Source: Yuukianura sp. NJ FZ-2021 (Eukaryota). From it: a stretch of DNA of 64,000 bases. How positions within the stretch are numbered: the stretch's first letter is position 1; each line of letters starts with the position of its first letter. The stretch is from NCBI GenBank assembly GCA_046563655.1, contig CM102284.1:434001-498000 (forward strand). The letters run 5' to 3'. Of the stretch, positions 47,922 to 56,765 are shown piece after piece. Under the pieces are notes generated by a model. That model did not search any database and was not told the origin of the DNA. It saw only the letters and a program-made list of their open reading frames with translations. Both the position numbers and the translations under genes were made by a program.

Positions 47922-49035
47922 ATGGGTCGAGTAATTCGTGCTCAGCGTAAGGGCGCCGGTTCCATTTTCGTCGCTCACACTCATCACAGGAAGGGAGCTC
48001 CCAAGTTGCGACACATGGACTATGCAGAGAAGCATGGTTACATCAAGGGAGTGATTAGGGAGATTATCCATGATCCAGGTCGAGGAGCTCCATTGGCAGT
48101 TGTAAACTTCCGAGATCCTTATAAATTCAAGACTCGGAAGGAACTGTTCATCGCTGCCGAGGGAATGTACACTGGACAATTTGTGTACTGCGGGAAGAAG
48201 GGTAAGTCATAACACCAAAACCTCAATGAATCAAAGTCCGAAGTAAAGATTCATTGCGATCATTGTATTTTACTTATTGCCATTGTTTATTTTTAGCCAC
48301 TCTCCAAATTGGGAACATCTTGCCTGTCGGAGTCATGCCCGAAGGTACGATTGTCTGCAATCTGGAGGAGAAGACAGGAGATCGTGGACGTTTGGCCAGA
48401 ACTTCTGGAAACTACGCTACCGTGATTGCCCACAACCCGGACACCAAGAGAACCAGGTAAATCCTTTCAATTTCATCATCAATCGACAGATTCAATTGGA
48501 TGTTGATGTTGCTGTGATGACCATTGATGTTCAGTCTCAGTGATGATGTAATGTAATGATCATTGATGTACACTGATGATGATATGATGAAGATCAATGA
48601 TCATCATTTTCATTGATGATGTGATGAAGATCGTAGATCATCCATTGACGAAGCTTCGTTGTGGTTTTATTTTAGTTAATTAATTTCGTCATTTACAGAG
48701 TCAAACTTCCATCAGGAGCGAAGAAAGTGATCCCTTCCAATAACCGAGCCATGGTTGGGATTGTTGCCGGAGGTGGGCGAATTGACAAGCCAATTCTGAA
48801 GGCCGGTCGTGCTTATCACAAGTACAAGGCCAAGAGGAACTGCTGGCCAATTGTTCGTGGTGTTTGCATGAACCCAGTCGAACATCCCTTCGGAGGAGGT
48901 AACCATCAACACATCGGTAAAGCCTCTACATGTAAACGTGGAACATCCGCCGGAAGGAAAGTGGGTCTCATCGCTGCCCGAAGAACTGGACGTATCCGAG
49001 GAGGAAAGAAGACCATCAAGGGAGCAGAGGATTAA
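47922..49035 (+). CDS. RPL8: 60S ribosomal protein L8 (uL2); exons 47922-48201, 48297-48456, 48700-49035
   Basis: [45 protein letters not shown] at about 49073. Confidence 0.97.
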
Positions 49036-49123
49036 GTTCTTTCTTATACGGTTACTCTTTTCTTTTTATTCTAATAAATTCTGGTATCCACGGATATGCT
49101 GAGCACCGACGAGGTATGCATGC

Positions 49124-49488
49124 TGCAACAACCCCGCAGTCCCTGAGACCGAAACTGTGATTTCCTCTACAGGGAAATCTGCAGTTCAGGTCGAATCTTC
49201 CTGGAGAGAAGATTTGACCTGAGGTCAACAATGCTTGGTTCTCCTAATGTGCCAACATCAACTGGAAAATGAAATGGTCGAGAACAACAAAGTGAACTAA
49301 TGGAATAACTTTTATTGAGATGTTCACTTGTTGAAGGTTGGGAAGAGACTCCCGCTACAGAAAATGCGAATAAAGATCTTTCTGTAACCTACACTCAGAG
49401 AACATAGTCCTCCTACTTTACCTATGCCTAACTACTCGGTTTCCTCCGGAGTTCCGAATCCGTCCCTCGTCAGTCCCTGTCCGCTTCA
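49124..49488 (-). repeat. 3' LTR
   Basis: Identical by eye to 53385-53749; AATAAA on both strands. Confidence 0.95.
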
Positions 49489-50486
49489 TATTGCGCCCGC
49501 GAAACGCGCCTCCATCAGCGCCATCTCCATGCACGGTCCTCCGACCTCGACCAGCGGATAAAATCTTCGTCTTCTTATCGTCTCGTTTCCACTCGACACG
49601 TCCAGAATTCCCACGTTTTGTCTTAAGTTTCTCCCGTTTCTTCATGTTAGTTGTTTGAGTCAAATGAATTCTGTTGACTGGACATTGTTCAAAATAGAGG
49701 TTCCGGAATTGTTTTCTTTCCAAAATATTGCTTTTCTGTCCGGTTGTTGGTTGACTTTCGGGCATTCTTGCCTGTTGTGTCCATTCGAGAAACAAATGAG
49801 TAAATCTTTGAAGTTAGACTGTTGAATTGTTGTAGGATGTAGTAACTGTCAAAACTTGTCTCTGATGTTGTTAGATGTTGATCTGCAACTCATCAGTTAT
49901 GTCAGCAATGTCTTCTTCAGCATATCGTTGTGCCAATTTGTTTTGAAGTAAAGTTGCGTTTCGACTGCTTGTCACTTCCATTGGTTTGTCAGTAAATTGA
50001 GTGTTCTTGACACTTTCGTCAGAAGTCGGCAATAATTTTGATTTCTTCTTCACTTCAACGTTTGTTTGACATTGTCGACTTCTTCTACGGAGAAGTCAAC
50101 ACCGATTTTCTCTTCAGGAAAATCAGTACCACGTTTTTACAAGTAGAAATTCTCTCTTCCGGAGAATTCCAATTTCCAATGTCCTCTACAGGGAATTTAG
50201 AGTAAATCTTTAGACTGTTTGTGCTGAATCTGGAGAGCATTTGAGATATTTAGATAAATGATTGTAAGTTTGCGCTCTAAAGTGAGGTTGTGACTAAAAC
50301 TCTGACTTAGCGGAAACTGCTTAACGTCAACGTACGATTTTCTATAGTAACGACTAAATGTACTGGACTATATTATTTCAGTACTATTAAATAATTCAGC
50401 AAAATTATAAATCTATTACATTATGATTTATACTATAATAATTTGAATATTTTCTTAACTAATGATTAATTATTATTTTGCCTTAA

Positions 50487-52064
50487 CTAATGACGTAGGC
50501 CTGCCAATGACCTATAATTTACTTGTTTTCTTTCGCGTAATTTGCTGGTAACTGCTGGACTTGTCGGAATGTCACTGGTTGCTTTCTTCTCGCGTAACTT
50601 CCTGGTAATTGGTTGACTTTTCCGAATGTCATTGTTCTTGATTTCTGACACAGTTTCTTCTCGAACAAAAAATGGTTTTAGCTCCAAAGCGTGACGTCTC
50701 CCGAATTTCTTGTTTGTGACTGGATCTGCTAACTCGTAGCTTGCGTCTGCGGTTTTTGATGTAATTTTGAAAGGGCATAGCCGTCGTTTTGAAAATTTTT
50801 GCATCATCTCATCGTCCTTTTTGGGAATTGGGTGATTTCGAATTAAGGCTACATCACCACTGTCGTATATAACATCTCGATGAGAACTGTCGTAATTTTT
50901 CTTATTTTCTTCACGTTCCTCCTCCATGTTCTCGCGTACCCATTTGATTAATTCTTGAAGTTTCTCGGGTAAACTTGTCAATTTCGCGCTTTCTTCATCA
51001 AAATTGGTGTTTCCTTTAGCTTCCAAATTTCTGTCAAACGGAAGTGGCAAATCGTTGCCTAAGTTCAAAAGGGCTGATGTAAATTTTGGTTGTGGTAACC
51101 CAGATGGTAGGGTATTGTCTGGCTTTGTCGTTTGACAAATTTTGCATGACTTGACGTAGTCAGCAGTGTCCTTATTCATTCTGTTCCAGAAACATCGATC
51201 TTCGATTTCCTCTTTTGTCTTCTTAACTCCAAGATGACCTGGCTTCGGTGCATCATGAAAAATCTTCTGAATTTCATTTTGGAGTGACGTTAGGATAACT
51301 GGAATCTTGATTTTTTGCAAAACGCGCTTCTGTTTTGACATATTGGGTTGGTTTGACTCTGGTACGATCCCTGCCGACTGAACTTGATTAGGTTCCTCCG
51401 CACTGGATGTACATTTTTGGAAACCCGGAATTTCCATTTTTTGAATTTGAGTTTCAGCTACTTTTGAGTGAACCTCGGTAGTATCTGCGAGAGAGTACTT
51501 TTTGATTCTCTTGAGCGGAATCTCGACTTGACGCTTCACTATTCCAACTTCAATTAAGAAGTGTGTACACTTGGAATTTGAAGGGTCATCACGAATCAAT
51601 TTCTTGAGACGTGAAGTTTGAATTTCATTTTCTTGATCAATTTTGATTTGGTTCGAAGTCGGTGTCTCGTAACAGAAACACACAAGGGTACAGACGATCT
51701 CTTCTGGATCGTCCGTTCCTTCAGTGTCATGACTGTCAACTGGAGCTCGTGAGAGAACGAAAATGTGTGCACTCCGTTCCGGTTTCTTTAGGATTTTGGA
51801 GATGAATAAGATTGGCCGATCCTTTCCATCTAAAGCTTGAACTTGCGCGGTGCCCAAGCTAATGTCGGATGCGTCACATTTGAGAATAATTGGAATTTTG
51901 GATTGAATTTTGATTTTTGATTGGATGTGTTTTGTCAATTGTTCTGTCATCATGCAAAACTTAGACACTGAGTCCAAGAATGCAGAAAATTTGAATTGAA
52001 TTGAAATAACTTGAGTTGTAGGTACACCTCTTGAGATTTTGTGGATTATCGGGAGAACACACAT
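50487..52064 (-). CDS. Internally deleted Pol-like ORF (RNase H N-terminal part, integrase HHCC zinc domain, GPY/F-like region; no RT or DDE core seen)
   Basis: ILKCDASDISLG..DRPILFISKIL (RNase H start); FHDAPKPGHLGVKKT..FWNRM..VKSCKICQ (HHCC); KFSKRRLCPFKI (GPY/F-like). Confidence 0.8.
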   Translation of the reverse strand: MCVLPIIHKISRGVPTTQVISIQFKFSAFLDSVSKFCMMTEQLTKHIQSKIKIQSKIPIILKCDASDISLGTAQVQALDGKDRPILFISKILKKPERSAHIFVLSRAPVDSHDTEGTDDPEEIVCTLVCFCYETPTSNQIKIDQENEIQTSRLKKLIRDDPSNSKCTHFLIEVGIVKRQVEIPLKRIKKYSLADTTEVHSKVAETQIQKMEIPGFQKCTSSAEEPNQVQSAGIVPESNQPNMSKQKRVLQKIKIPVILTSLQNEIQKIFHDAPKPGHLGVKKTKEEIEDRCFWNRMNKDTADYVKSCKICQTTKPDNTLPSGLPQPKFTSALLNLGNDLPLPFDRNLEAKGNTNFDEESAKLTSLPEKLQELIKWVRENMEEEREENKKNYDSSHRDVIYDSGDVALIRNHPIPKKDDEMMQKFSKRRLCPFKITSKTADASYELADPVTNKKFGRRHALELKPFFVREETVSEIKNNDIRKSQPITRKLREKKATSDIPTSPAVTSKLRERKQVNYRSLAGLRH

Positions 52065-52100
52065 CGAGGTGGTTATTGGTGTCTCCCTTGGGAGTTTAAA
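52025..52100 (-). promoter_or_regulatory. -1 programmed ribosomal frameshift signal (U_UUA_AAC + H-type pseudoknot)
   Basis: Heptamer in phase with ORF1; 6-nt spacer; stem 1 GGGAGACAC/GUGUUCUCCC; stem 2 CACCUC/GAGGUG; the -1 frame is the Pol-like ORF. Confidence 0.8.
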
Positions 52101-52510
52101 TCTGGTTTCTGATTGGTACTCTCGGCATCATTTTGTTCATTAACTTGACTCGATTCTGGAATGCGAACGTAATCTGCTCCACTCGGTACAGCACGTGAAC
52201 TGGATTGACCAGAAGCCGTAGTGCGCATGCCTGTTGTTGCTGTTGGAGCTTGGGTTGTGATAGTTGAAGCAGTAGATGAGACGATAGGGACTTGGTTTGC
52301 TACAGTTCGTTGAACAACGGAACTTGCATCTGAACTTCCATTTGAGTAATCATCTTCATCTACTGGATTTTGAATTTGCATGTCACTTTCAACATCATCA
52401 TCATCAATTGGTTCTTCAGGAATTTGATTTATGTTTTGTCTGTCCATGTTAAATCCTTGTAGGAATGCACGAGAGTTTCGATCCAAATCTCTCACTTCCC
52501 TTCTGCTCAT
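52073..52510 (-). CDS. Short ORF1 in the gag position (145 aa, low complexity)
   Basis: First ORF after the 5' UTR; it overlaps the Pol frame at a slippery heptamer; no capsid or zinc-knuckle motif recognised. Confidence 0.55.
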   Translation of the reverse strand: MSRREVRDLDRNSRAFLQGFNMDRQNINQIPEEPIDDDDVESDMQIQNPVDEDDYSNGSSDASSVVQRTVANQVPIVSSTASTITTQAPTATTGMRTTASGQSSSRAVPSGADYVRIPESSQVNEQNDAESTNQKPDLNSQGRHQ

Positions 52511-53384
52511 TAGTTAATACTGGAAACGAAATTCTCTACGGGAATTTCAATTAGCCAGTTAACTGAGTTAGTTTTTAGGATTCTGTTTGTTTTAATTGGT
52601 TTTGAGATGGTCTTGGTGTCGATGCTCTCTTCAGGACCTTCAACTCCACGTTACAACTTGTTCCTCTCCTTGAGTTTTTGATTTCCTCTACAGGGAAATC
52701 TAAGTATTTGGTAATTTTTGGAAAATCGGGCAGCACCCGTGCGTGATTTCGAATTTTTGAAATTTTTTGGGCAGCACCCGTGCGTAATGTTTGATTTTGG
52801 AATTTTTGGCAGCACCAGTGCCTTTATTTTATGTAGGGGTTGTTATATGAATCTCTTCCTTCTTTTAATTTGGCATCAAATGGACAATGAACGATTTTCT
52901 CTACAGGAAAATCGGTTCAGTCTATCGAAAAATCTCTTCAGGATTTTTCAAAATGAGCGACGAATTGCTCTCTGTCCTTTGGTTTGGTGTCCTTGACCTC
53001 TGAACTTTTCTCTACGGGAAAATTTCAAAGTGTTTGAATTTTTGAAAAAATCGGGCAGCACCCGTGCGTGAAAACGATTTTTGGAAAATTTTTGGCAGCA
53101 CCCGTGCCTTTATTTGACCTTTGACCTGACCCGTCTTTTCTCTACCGGAAAATACAGGTAGGTTGTTGATTTATTCCAATGCTGGATTGCTTTTCTCTAC
53201 AGGAAAATCAATCAGCTGGTAGGTCAGAATTTCCTCTACAGGGAAATTCTCATCGGTTTATCTCGTCTCCTTCTTCAGTTGTCTTCAATTGAGCCTTTCT
53301 CTACAGGAAAGTCTCACTTGACCTCTTGACCTTTCATTTCAGTTGAGAACATGACATCACTGGAATGATCCCTTCGGCCGCCAC

Positions 53385-53749
53385 TGCAACAACCCCGCAG
53401 TCCCTGAGACCGAAACTGTGATTTCCTCTACAGGGAAATCTGCAGTTCAGGTCGAATCTTCCTGGAGAGAAGATTTGACCTGAGGTCAACAATGCTTGGT
53501 TCTCCTAATGTGCCAACATCAACTGGAAAATGAAATGGTCGAGAACAACAAAGTGAACTAATGGAATAACTTTTATTGAGATGTTCACTTGTTGAAGGTT
53601 GGGAAGAGACTCCCGCTACAGAAAATGCGAATAAAGATCTTTCTGTAACCTACACTCAGAGAACATAGTCCTCCTACTTTACCTATGCCTAACTACTCGG
53701 TTTCCTCCGGAGTTCCGAATCCGTCCCTCGTCAGTCCCTGTCCGCTTCA
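53385..53749 (-). repeat. 5' LTR
   Basis: Adjacent to the PBS-like sequence at 53367-53383. Confidence 0.95.
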
Positions 53750-53990
53750 ATGCATAACTTTTTCATGAAGCCAAAAAAGTTAAAGGTCAGCCTCTGCAAA
53801 TCCTCCAGGACTTTCTGGGCTTCATCGAACAAAGTTAAAATCAATTTGTACAAAAAGTTTGAGTATTAGAAGTTAGCAGTATTTAAGCCTCCCTTTTCCA
53901 GAATTTGGCAGTAGTTGTTCATCCTTCGTCGCTTGGTGAAGGTGGATCCATCCAGAAAAACTCGAATTATTTGAAGATTTTTAACAAAAG

Positions 53991-55643
53991 ATGAGTTACA
54001 GTGGTGGCTACAATGGTGGCTACATGCCACCACCTTATCCACCCGGTGGCTACGGCTATCCACAGTGGGGTCCACCAAATCCATTTACGACTTCGTTCCA
54101 AGCATCGCTCCAACCTGGAGCCAGTCGGTTCGGAAACCAAACCGTGGTGGACAAAGTTCCAGCAGAGATGTTGAGTCTCATAGATCCTCATTGGTACCAA
54201 TTCCCTCCGATGAATCCTCTGTGGCACTCGATTCTGGGTGTTGCCATGACGATATTCGTCATTTTGTCGCTCGCTGGCAACGGAGTCGTCCTGTCCGTCT
54301 TCATGTCAACCAAATCCCTGCGCACTCCAGCCAATCTCCTGGTGGTCAATCTCGCCTTCTCTGACTTTTGCACCATGTTGACCATGGGAATTCCAATGAT
54401 CATCAACTGCTACTACGAAACATGGATTTTCGGTAAACCATGAATCATAACTTAACTTGAGTTGATTAATCATGATTAACTTACCTTGGATATGTTAGGT
54501 CCACTGATGTGTGAAGTTTATGGAATGCTGGGGTCACTCTGGGGGTACCTTTCAATTCACTCCATGGTTCTCATTGCTCTGGACAGATACAATGTCATCG
54601 TCAAGGGTTTTGCCTCAAAACCACTCACCACAAAATCCGCCATTTTGAAAATCCTCCTCACGTGGTTCATCGCTCTCGTCTGGACAGTCATTCCACTTTT
54701 CGGCTGGAACAGGTAAGTGCAATGCCCAATATGCAAGCAATGTATTCCTCAAGGTTCGTAAACAAAATAGTTTTTTCTTCAACAGGTTAGCCAATAACTA
54801 GAACTTTTTAAATTTTTAAACGTTTTGGACAGATACGTTCCGGAAGGGAACATGACATCTTGTGGACTGGACTATCTGAACAAGGATTGGTTCTCACGGT
54901 CCTACATCTTGGTCTACGCATTCTTCGTCTACTTCCTTTCTCTGTTCACTATCATTTATGCTTACTACTTCATTGTCAAGGTATGTATGCAGTTTTCAAA
55001 ATTTCGAAAGAAAAAAAATCAAAAAAAAAAAATTCTGAAAACTCAACCTGGTTTCCAATTCCAGGCCGTTTTTAGTCACGAGAAACAAATGCGGGAGCAA
55101 GCTAAGAAAATGAATGTAGCCTCTTTCCGTCAGAACCAATCCGACGAGACCAAGAAACAGTCTACGGAAGCTAAACTCGCAAAGGTAATTAAGTAAACTA
55201 ACCTTAATCAAGTAAACTAAACTTAATCAACTAAAAACTCAATTAACTACTCATTAGCACTATCCGTTTATCCTTAGATTGCTTTGATGACGATCAGCCT
55301 TTGGTTCCTGGCTTGGACTCCCTACCTCGTCATCAACTTTACCGGAATCTTCGAACCATCCAAGATCTCTCCACTGGCATCAATCTGGGGCTCAGTCTTT
55401 GCTAAAATGGGCGCCATTTACAACCCAATTGTCTATGCAATCAGGTACGCCTTACTCACAACTCTAATTAAAGTTAATTAATTCCTCAATTAATCAATTA
55501 ATTGATCCTTTAGTCACCCCAAGTACCGTGCTGCTCTGCTCAAGAAGTATCCTTGCCTGGCCTGTGCCACGGAACCACCGGAATCAGACATACTTTCCCA
55601 AACATCGAATGTCACCAAGGCTAACCTCGAGGAGACGGCCTAA
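53991..55643 (+). CDS. Long-wavelength-type rhabdomeric visual opsin (6 exons)
   Basis: [69 protein letters not shown], retinal-binding Lys in [18 protein letters not shown]. Confidence 0.96.
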
Positions 55644-55856: not shown

Positions 55857-56765
55857 TTATGCTGTGGTGGTTGTGGGTTTGACGATGCAGTGAGTGACAC
55901 CGTCACTTAAATAAGCGATTTGAGCAAAGGCTGCTCTGGAGAGTGTAAGACATCGACCGTAAGCAAGGTCCTTCGGCCTTCCCACGATCTGGACGGTAAC
56001 TGATCGCTTGAGTTCGGGATTTGTGACGGAAACGTACGAACCAATCGGAAGTTTGGGATGGAGTCCGGAAAGACTGGTGGGATCCATGTAGTATACTTGA
56101 CGCTTGAAGAATCGCTGCGTAGCATGAGCTGGATTGGTATAGTCTCCAGACGTAGTACTTCCGCCGCTATAGGTACTCGCTGGGACGTACCCGGTTCCAG
56201 TGTTTCCGTAGTAAGTACCTTCAGCATTTTGGTGGTACCCATTCTTATTGGTATATCCTGTGTCGATACCGCTATAATCTGTGTTGGTACCGCTATATCC
56301 TGTGTCGATACCGCTATATCCTGTGTTGGTACCGCTATATCCTCCATTGGTACCACTATATCCTGTGTTGGTACCGCTATAACCTCCATTGGTACTGGTA
56401 TAGCCGCTATTTGCACCGCTTAAGTATGCAGCTACTGATGGATCGTACCCAGCGTTTGGATGGTAGCCAGTTGCCCATGAATTTAAGTTATCGTAACCAG
56501 TATTAGCGTAGCCTGAGTCCACAGCGCCACTAGAATCCTCGTCCGCCATTTCTCCAGTTGTTGACCAATCACATTCCGCATCCTCTAAAAACAAGTTTAA
56601 TTAAACTAAAAGTTTAAATATTTGGGCGCTAAATTCTTAATTTGTGATTGATTGCTGACCTGTGTTTGGTGGTAGCGTCGGGTCTGCCGACCAGAAGCCA
56701 CCCAAAACGCCTGGGATGGCAAAGCCAACAATGTTTAGTGTCGTTACAAACATTCGCAGCTTCAT
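55857..56765 (-). CDS. Secreted protein with GYSGTN repeats and a C-terminal RlpA-like double-psi beta-barrel; exons 56765-56660 and 56584-55857
   Basis: Signal peptide MKLRMFVTTLNIVGFAIPGVLG; 21-bp repeats; GTYYG, LHPKLPIGSYVSVTNPELKRSVTVQI and GRCLTLSRAAF align by eye with the RlpA pattern AHxTLPxGTxVRVTN..GRSVxVRI..GRIIDLSxAA. Confidence 0.75.

Follow-up and report, generated by a model that had tools for sequence, protein, structure and literature searches.

A recently inserted gypsy-type LTR retrotransposon derivative that lacks recognizable enzymes but keeps a -1 frameshift signal and an open Pol frame

Identification of an enzyme-free derivative of a Ty3/gypsy-type element

A stretch of 64,000 nucleotides from Yuukianura sp. 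NJ FZ-2021 (assembly GCA_046563655.1, contig CM102284.1, positions 434,001 to 498,000; hereafter the window) was analyzed, where two open reading frames (ORFs) were found inside a complete long terminal repeat (LTR) retrotransposon of 4,626 bp. The element spans positions 49124-53749 of the window on the minus strand, which is also the strand of all its features described below. It is almost certainly a recent, non-autonomous derivative of a Ty3/gypsy-type LTR retrotransposon that is mobilized in trans in an animal genome. Because every enzyme of its Pol has been lost, the reverse transcriptase (RT), protease, and integrase must come in trans, while the remainder of Pol stays open behind a -1 frameshift signal at the end of a gag remnant. 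As an overall explanation, preference was given by a modest degree to a derivative that is free of enzymes, complete in cis, and kept open in frame for the sake of translation itself.

The two LTRs (5' LTR, 53385-53749; 3' LTR, 49124-49488) are direct repeats of 365 bp that begin with TG and end with CA, and they are 100% identical to each other, with an AATAAA signal at 53577-53572 in the 5' copy. They are bordered by a target-site duplication of 4 bp (53750-53753 upstream, GCAT on the element strand, and 49120-49123 downstream), and the ends were confirmed by an empty site that is described below. One nucleotide past the 5' LTR lies a 17-mer led by TGG (53367-53383), which resembles a primer-binding site in that it looks complementary to the 3' terminus of a tRNA; the window contains no tRNA gene with which it could be compared. 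The original prediction had called the element defective, which describes the loss of its enzymes but not an element that is complete in cis, with identical LTRs, a target duplication, and a PBS-like site, and that was recently inserted.

The assignment to Ty3/gypsy relied on Pol, where a remnant of RNase H, the integrase HHCC domain, and a C-terminal module occur in this order, RNase H being ahead of integrase, and where the closest relatives of ORF2 are full gypsy-type Pols. Neither ORF2 nor any of the 38 pieces of at least 45 aa from the six frames of the element contained an RT, a protease, or a DDE core. Judged by its sequence, the element is a derivative rather than an autonomous member of the group.

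Loss of Pol and gag domains

Full-length relatives (among them L001, L002, L004, L005, and L006) were obtained from a scan of metagenome contigs. Protein searches with ORF2 (52064-50487, 525 aa from an ATG at 52064) returned only distant relatives with at most 41% identity, and a search of viral contigs gave no match. Among Pfam families, ORF2 matched Integrase_H2C2 (3.9e-17), half of RT_RNaseH (8e-6), and faintly SH3_Tf2-1 (0.14), and it had no match to RVT, protease, or rve families.

Searches by tblastn and alignment against full Pols identified three retained blocks, all in one frame. These included the N-terminal half of RNase H (51756-51902), the linker between RNase H and integrase together with an intact HHCC zinc-binding domain (51120-51287; H270, H277, C307, and C310), and the C-terminal region of integrase (50490-51089), which comprises an SH3/GPY/F-like module with its W and G replaced and continues to the clade motif VNYR.LAG at the C-terminus. 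Compared with the relatives, the protease and RT (approximately 430 aa together), part of RNase H (71-72 aa), and the DDE core (151 aa, as counted in the L001 Pol) were missing, in every case in frame. The RNase H junction (51756/51761) and the DDE-core junction (51086-51090) are clean within 3 nt, and the RNase H gap takes three of the four catalytic acidic residues, as read from the alignment. A relative from the same genome, approximately 85% alike and found in two sequencing runs (X1 and X3), has 217 letters where this copy has four, which gives a net difference of 213 nt, or 71 codons. The ORF2 tail additionally carries an in-frame tandem duplication of 57 nt (19 codons; 50523-50631), whose copies are 83% alike.

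Most of what the original prediction stated on Pol was upheld. RT, protease, most of RNase H, and the DDE core were unrecognizable by both Pfam and the six-frame check, a cryptic intact RT or DDE domain was looked for in all six frames and none was found, and mapping of the junctions by alignment and tblastn against the relatives agreed that the deletions preserve the frame. The dependence on an autonomous gypsy relative, of which the element would be a deletion derivative, was likewise borne out by the loss of every enzyme. The proposed jump from the start of RNase H to the HHCC domain to a GPY/F-like tail was correct in domain order and losses, but it passed over the linker of approximately 155 aa, homologous to that of the relatives, that is retained before the HHCC domain. 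An AlphaFold2 model of ORF2 from an alignment of seven rows was poor (mean pLDDT of 45.5 and pTM of 0.27), with islands of 64-80 at residues 140-180 and 250-310.

The upstream ORF1 (52073-52510, 145 aa) is a gag remnant. It matched no Pfam family, had no homologue among 1.84 billion representatives, and gave no match to a profile of the gags of the relatives; these searches agree with the earlier observation that it has no recognizable capsid domain or zinc knuckle. Each gag of the relatives gave a score for Retrotrans_gag, for a CCHC-type zinc knuckle, or for both, although some of these scores were below the curated cut-off. Neither the gags nor the third ORF (ORF3) of the relatives had a tblastn match in the element. 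Contigs of the sequencing runs have loose ends at 52129 and 52117, where members of the family continue into other sequence, in both cases open in the ORF1 frame over 30 letters when examined by eye. Because of this continuation, the loose ends point to a putative deletion within gag, immediately ahead of the slip site.

ORF3 follows pol in the relatives L002 (6108-7757), L004 (5894-7525), L005 (1657-3288), and L006 (5209-6444), where it includes a DEDDy 3'-5' exonuclease (DNA_pol_A_exo1, 1e-9 to 2e-33), an HRDC domain, and a zinc knuckle. No ORF3 was found in this element by tblastn or profiles, with at most a degenerate zinc-knuckle tail. The 3' internal region (49489-50486) consists of 998 nt without a long ORF and contains three hairpins of the array described below as well as a degenerate CCHC remnant. 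Within it, a stop-to-stop piece of 62 aa (49663-49848) matches zf-CCHC_2 weakly (8e-4, which does not reach the cut-off), with another residue in place of one cysteine; the piece may derive from the end of an ORF3 that has been lost.

Recent insertion and spread of the deleted form

Contigs of four public runs (X1-X4), three of which derive from one sample while X2 belongs to a second study, were aligned to the locus. The comparisons of substitutions and of insertions or deletions (indels) among copies rest on the listed 40 of 593 and 12 of 76, respectively, found among these contigs. The site was empty in all four runs and thus in both studies. In X1, X2, and X4, a contig joins position 49119 directly to 53750, with four letters that fit both sides and represent a single target copy, and the flanks of the X2 contig are identical to the window. 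In X3, a variant empty allele (49103-49119/53750) skips 4,646 bases and has three other letters at the joint. Since contigs from the runs of two studies have the site empty, the insertion is young and polymorphic.

The family to which the element belongs is multi-copy and of mixed age. Loose ends of contigs start exactly at 49124, 49488, and 53750, which indicates the same LTR at other sites, and the contig depth summed over the element is several-fold that of its flanks, which is a hint of several copies rather than a copy count. The contigs range from at least 99% to less than 90% alike to the element. Contigs bridge the RNase H junction, including in X2 of the second study, and the DDE junction in X1, X3, and X4, where most of the bridging contigs carry three extra letters. 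As both junctions are bridged by abundant contigs, the deleted form itself has spread; recent transposition and several copies are thus seen for an element without enzymes. Within the window, no second copy was found.

These contigs also bear on the possibility that the mosaic arose during assembly or represents a domesticated host gene, which was considered highly improbable. No listed contig spans the whole stretch, and host genes of the PEG10 type, among other gypsy-derived genes, are described as having retained -1 frameshifting (PMC5009743). The RNase H junction is nevertheless bridged in runs of two studies and the DDE junction in three runs, and the LTRs, the target duplication, and a site that is empty in other runs are the opposite of what is expected for immobile genes such as PEG10. 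A domesticated retroelement gene that is fixed, immobile, and without LTRs is largely ruled out by the same LTRs, duplication, and empty allele.

A conserved -1 frameshift signal at the end of gag

The 3' end of ORF1 reads GAT TTA AAC TCC CAA GGG AGA CAC CAA TAA, where the slippery heptamer U_UUA_AAC (52100-52094) is in phase with ORF1 as X_XXY_YYZ and is followed by the 6-nt spacer UCCCAA. The -1 frame contains no stop from 52127 to 50487 and continues into the 525-codon ORF2, so that a shift at the heptamer would give a predicted fusion of 139 + 535 = 674 aa. The region of stem 1 (52087-52051) folds alone as had been proposed, with 52087-52079 pairing with 52060-52051 and two extra pairs, at -11.3 kcal/mol. 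In stem 2 (52071-52025), the loop CACCUC (52071-52066) pairs with GAGGUG (52030-52025) at -10.4 kcal/mol. The heptamer and its phase, the spacer, both stems, and the unbroken frame had all been given correctly in the original prediction. As computed, stem 1 has 9-11 bp with bulges, stem 2 has 6 bp, and loop 2 has 5 nt; the description as a textbook signal is hence fair for the slip site and the spacer but generous for a computed pseudoknot with a loop 2 of this length. The region combines the usual features of a -1 signal, namely an in-phase heptamer near the end of the upstream ORF, a downstream ORF in the -1 frame, and a structure starting 5-9 nt downstream of the heptamer. The combined score of the two stems was matched by three of 1000 dinucleotide shuffles and at two of 113 other positions within the element. 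A search of the region against Rfam returned no family at E values up to 1.

For comparison, a close set of full-length relatives was used (L001, L002, L004, and L006), whose Pols are 30-41% identical to ORF2. In all four, pol is in the -1 frame and the same heptamer U_UUA_AAC occurs in phase just ahead of the gag stop. A stem of differing sequence begins 5-6 nt past the heptamer (-9.4 to -12.9 kcal/mol), and a stem at the matching spacing was therefore found in five of five elements, this copy included. Pairing of the loop with downstream sequence was identified by an automatic scan in four of the five (5-6 bp, -7.7 to -10.4 kcal/mol), and in L001, the fifth, a loop pairing of 6 bp (-8.2 kcal/mol) was found when the stem was taken with a larger loop. 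The H-type arrangement, in which the loop pairs downstream, is hence kept through different sequences. When the five regions were aligned with MAFFT, their 3' arms did not come into register. No shuffle of 90 matched the combined pseudoknot score in four of the five elements. When ranked against natural positions, this copy was at 2/113 and L001 at 26/120, while the others were at 5/212, 2/194, and 1/167 (combined p = 1.4e-4). Because the heptamer, spacer, stem, and loop pairing recur in four relatives at 30-41% Pol identity, the signal is an inherited feature of the clade and not a product of chance, which gives the proposed signal comparative support.

Among more distant relatives, L007 has A_AAA_AAC in phase at the gag-pol junction (460-466), and L008 has pol in the -1 frame without a classical heptamer at the overlap (around 1940-1965). 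According to a review, pol is in the -1 frame in 28 of 51 surveyed animal LTR elements, and U_UUA_AAC ranks among the most shift-prone heptamers in animal cells (PMC5009743). The signal also resembles that of the coronavirus IBV type, which uses the identical heptamer with a comparable spacer and has a stem 1 whose loop forms stem 2 with downstream sequence. There is no sequence relation between the two, and the signal of this element differs in having a bulged stem 1 of 9-11 bp and a loop 2 of 5 nt, both known from computation only.

The frameshift signal probably still works in this copy. Three of the calculations speak against it: stem 1 alone was unexceptional (matched by 42 of 1000 shuffles and at 10 of 113 positions), a plain nested fold of the 86 nt was unremarkable (z of -1.46), and L001 was unexceptional by the automatic score (9/90 shuffles and 26/120 positions).

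Preservation of the open frame

All changes of length observed in the ORFs keep the frame, including the three verified Pol deletions, the 57-nt duplication, and both of the listed indels (+3 and +3). The listed indels were multiples of three in two of two cases inside the ORFs and in none of 10 outside, where they were 1 or 7 nt long (Fisher p = 0.015). Of the non-synonymous changes possible in ORF2, approximately 6.5% would create a stop, and 10-15% of neutral amino-acid drift would leave ORF2 open with a probability of 0.06-0.016. ORF2 has in fact lost 27 of the 75 residues that are invariant among relatives, compared with 7-12 of 74-79 in close relatives, and a loss of this extent, if neutral, would be expected to have been accompanied by several stops. 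The balance of these observations leans, by a small degree, to a frame kept by selection, for which the evidence is suggestive but not proven. The selection on translation put forward in the original prediction accordingly gains from the contrast between frame-keeping changes in the ORFs and the 0/10 outside, while it gains nothing from the substitutions, 10 of 12 of which are non-synonymous.

A less probable explanation, which still carries considerable weight, is that the frame is open by accident and because the copy is recent. On this view, the deletions preserved the frame by chance, stops have not had time to accumulate, translation does not contribute to the spread of the element, and the signal was merely inherited. 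The identical LTRs and the empty allele mark a very recent copy, the substitutions look neutral, many conserved residues are gone, and the finding was picked for its openness with variants seen only among those listed. This explanation accounts poorly for the difference between the ORFs, where all seen length changes keep the frame, and the sequence outside them, where none of the 10 listed does. Moreover, the family is not wholly young, since contigs fall to less than 90% alike and the deleted junctions are common to many of them, and the loss of conserved residues implies drift sufficient for stops to have appeared.

The amino-acid sequence provided a further test of what might be selected. 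Of the 12 best-supported listed substitutions, 10 are non-synonymous (eight of eight in ORF2 and two of four in ORF1), where approximately 79% are expected by chance; the listed substitutions give no sign of amino-acid constraint. Conservation appears to be relaxed throughout the Pol remnant except in the HHCC finger, which keeps 14 of 15 invariant columns versus 34 of 60 elsewhere (p of 0.007), and these columns may simply have been the most constrained in the autonomous ancestors.

The contrast between the finger and the rest also gives support to a Pol remnant that works as a protein, with its HHCC and C-terminal domains serving as an adaptor, decoy, or dominant negative in the integration complex of a helper. 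The DDE deletion takes out the core cleanly and joins the finger to the C-terminal region, and the natural C-terminal motif is kept. Nevertheless, the GPY/F motif of ORF2 has other residues in place of its W and G even though five of five relatives with this region keep both, none of the eight listed ORF2 substitutions is synonymous, only half of the RNase H domain is left, and ORF1 has no capsid domain to carry a fusion protein into particles. A protein role for the two domains is possible but poorly supported, and it was regarded as an unlikely account of the open frame. Together, the non-synonymous changes and the lost invariant residues, including the W and G, argue against the well-conserved integrase decoy or adaptor that the original prediction had offered as an example, and they fit better with selection on translatability.

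Several points weigh against a mobile derivative selected for translation. ORF2 keeps 48 of 75 columns that are invariant in relatives, where the relatives keep 67/74, 67/75, 67/79, 66/89, 47/55, and 42/50, and the GPY/F replacements and the non-synonymous excess noted above add to this relaxed picture. Three in-frame deletions alone have a 3.7% chance, and the finding was chosen for its open frame, which brings a post-hoc bias. Broken copies may also exist beyond the part of the variants that was listed. With regard to mobility, no clear purine run abuts the 3' LTR where a polypurine tract would be placed, and no autonomous partner with an RT was seen among the contigs of the four runs; the only fuller relative seen is the one approximately 85% alike, which keeps the C-terminal half of RNase H and is known only around RNase H (X1 and X3), next to the loose ends at the gag junction that run on into other coding sequence. 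Expression, frameshifting, and mobilization of the element are furthermore deduced from its sequence.

Candidate mechanism and comparison with known systems

Under the favored explanation of a frame kept open for translation, the element RNA would be copied by the Gag and Pol of a complete relative acting as a helper. Translation would start at ORF1 and, for most ribosomes, end at 52073. A smaller share would slip by -1 on U_UUA_AAC while held up at the stem or pseudoknot, which lies 6 nt past the heptamer, and would read the Pol remnant of 535 codons to its natural end. The frame would be kept because translation of the RNA itself is helpful, rather than for an enzymatic or well-conserved protein function. 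Two candidate mechanisms may be considered. Translation could have a cis effect such as that reported for the mouse IAP 1-delta-1 element, or ribosomes could clear the long region past the gag stop and thereby shield the RNA from nonsense-mediated decay. Readthrough and -1 frameshift elements protect transcripts sensitive to nonsense-mediated decay, a protection that stops further downstream are expected to abolish (PMC6277124).

The closest known system is mouse IAP 1-delta-1. This element is described as non-autonomous, as needing Gag and Pol in trans, and as the cause of most new IAP insertions, and a cis action of its in-frame gag-pol fusion ORF has been reported (PMC6466679, citing Saito et al. 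2008). In both systems, internal deletion leaves a single open frame across gag and pol. IAP 1-delta-1 differs in that it resides in a vertebrate, belongs to another retroelement class, and arose by one deletion of 1.9 kb. The present element, in contrast, has at least three deletions in Pol in addition to that in gag, retains a gag-pol frameshift signal, and is known from sequence alone.

The LTR retrotransposons Juno and Vesta of bdelloid rotifers are reported to carry a DEDDy exonuclease ORF3 and mostly to use gag-pol frameshifting (PMC5408684). Their ORF3 type matches that of the relatives L002, L004, L005, and L006. The element described here lacks ORF3 beyond the possible zinc-knuckle tail, a comparison that for Juno/Vesta and likewise for TelKA2n was made by description only. 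In addition, the host ribosomal protein gene beside the element is nearest to those of arthropods, not of rotifers.

Non-autonomous LTR elements such as LARD, TRIM, and Tos17 are mobilized in trans by autonomous relatives, and non-autonomous LTR elements in general are usually viewed as non-coding passengers. To our knowledge, LARD and TRIM elements contain no ORFs. A literature search for in-frame non-autonomous LTR elements returned little beyond Tos17, which is described as active despite lacking gag (PMC3977881). Tos17 keeps pol, whereas the present element has retained a stub of gag and a Pol frame free of enzymes.

A non-autonomous gypsy derivative mobilized in trans is thus of a known kind, to which the details add a tidy preservation of the frame. 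With a currently mobile copy, at least four frame-preserving rearrangements, a conserved frameshift signal, and a relaxed protein sequence, the element would offer a natural case for the question raised by IAP 1-delta-1, namely whether the copying of a parasite RNA benefits from the act of its translation and not from the protein that is made. We know of no examination of this question in invertebrates. In addition, the comparison with relatives shows that a U_UUA_AAC pseudoknot signal is conserved in a clade of gypsy elements, the full members of which encode an exonuclease in ORF3.

A hairpin array in the leader and elsewhere in the element

The element contains 15 hairpins with a heptaloop of the form C-N-G-U/A-A-G-A, mostly CUGUAGA, on covarying stems of 5-14 bp. 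All of them are on the sense strand of the element, with loops starting at 53433, 53306, 53241, 53202, 53147, 53017, 52941, 52906, 52693, 52541, 51706, 50161, 50117, 50090, and 49172. One hairpin is found in each LTR, nine are in the leader (52511-53384, 874 nt), one is in ORF2, and three are in the 3' region. In contrast, the antisense strand contained none, the remaining 59 kb of the window contained one, and six relatives contained none. A stricter heptaloop pattern gave 11 matches versus 0.28 expected. When the whole leader of 874 nt was folded, most of the heptaloop hairpins were kept, although the overall fold was unexceptional (z of -1.36, 20 shuffles).

The combination of conserved loops and varying stems, including G-U pairs, points to a role as RNA, and the array may serve as a signal for packaging or for the binding of a protein. 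Papers on microRNAs were all that a search of the literature for the heptaloop motif returned. A more elaborate scheme brings these features together: selection for translatability would combine with slipping ribosomes that continue for approximately 1.6 kb after the gag stop, thereby protecting or cis-marking the RNA to be packaged, and the 15 hairpins would act as a packaging signal of high avidity that steals the Gag of the helper. This scheme is tentative, and it is doubtful that all of its parts hold.

The leader also contains a second repeat (52708-52829 and 53033-53115), with five copies of a GC-rich GCACGGGTGCTGCC-like motif separated by A/T-rich spacers. This repeat corresponds to the repeat family D3, or period-41 array.

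Genomic surroundings

The element is inserted in antisense orientation between host genes on the plus strand. On one side lie the exons of ribosomal protein L8 (RPL8; 47922-49035), whose best named matches are from arthropods, and on the other side lies an opsin-like receptor of several exons (53991-55481). The window includes 100 N. Beyond the receptor, an ORF of 230 aa on the minus strand (55857-56549), unrelated to the element, contains at least eight tandem units of 21 nt that encode a repeat rich in Gly, Tyr, Ser, and Thr.

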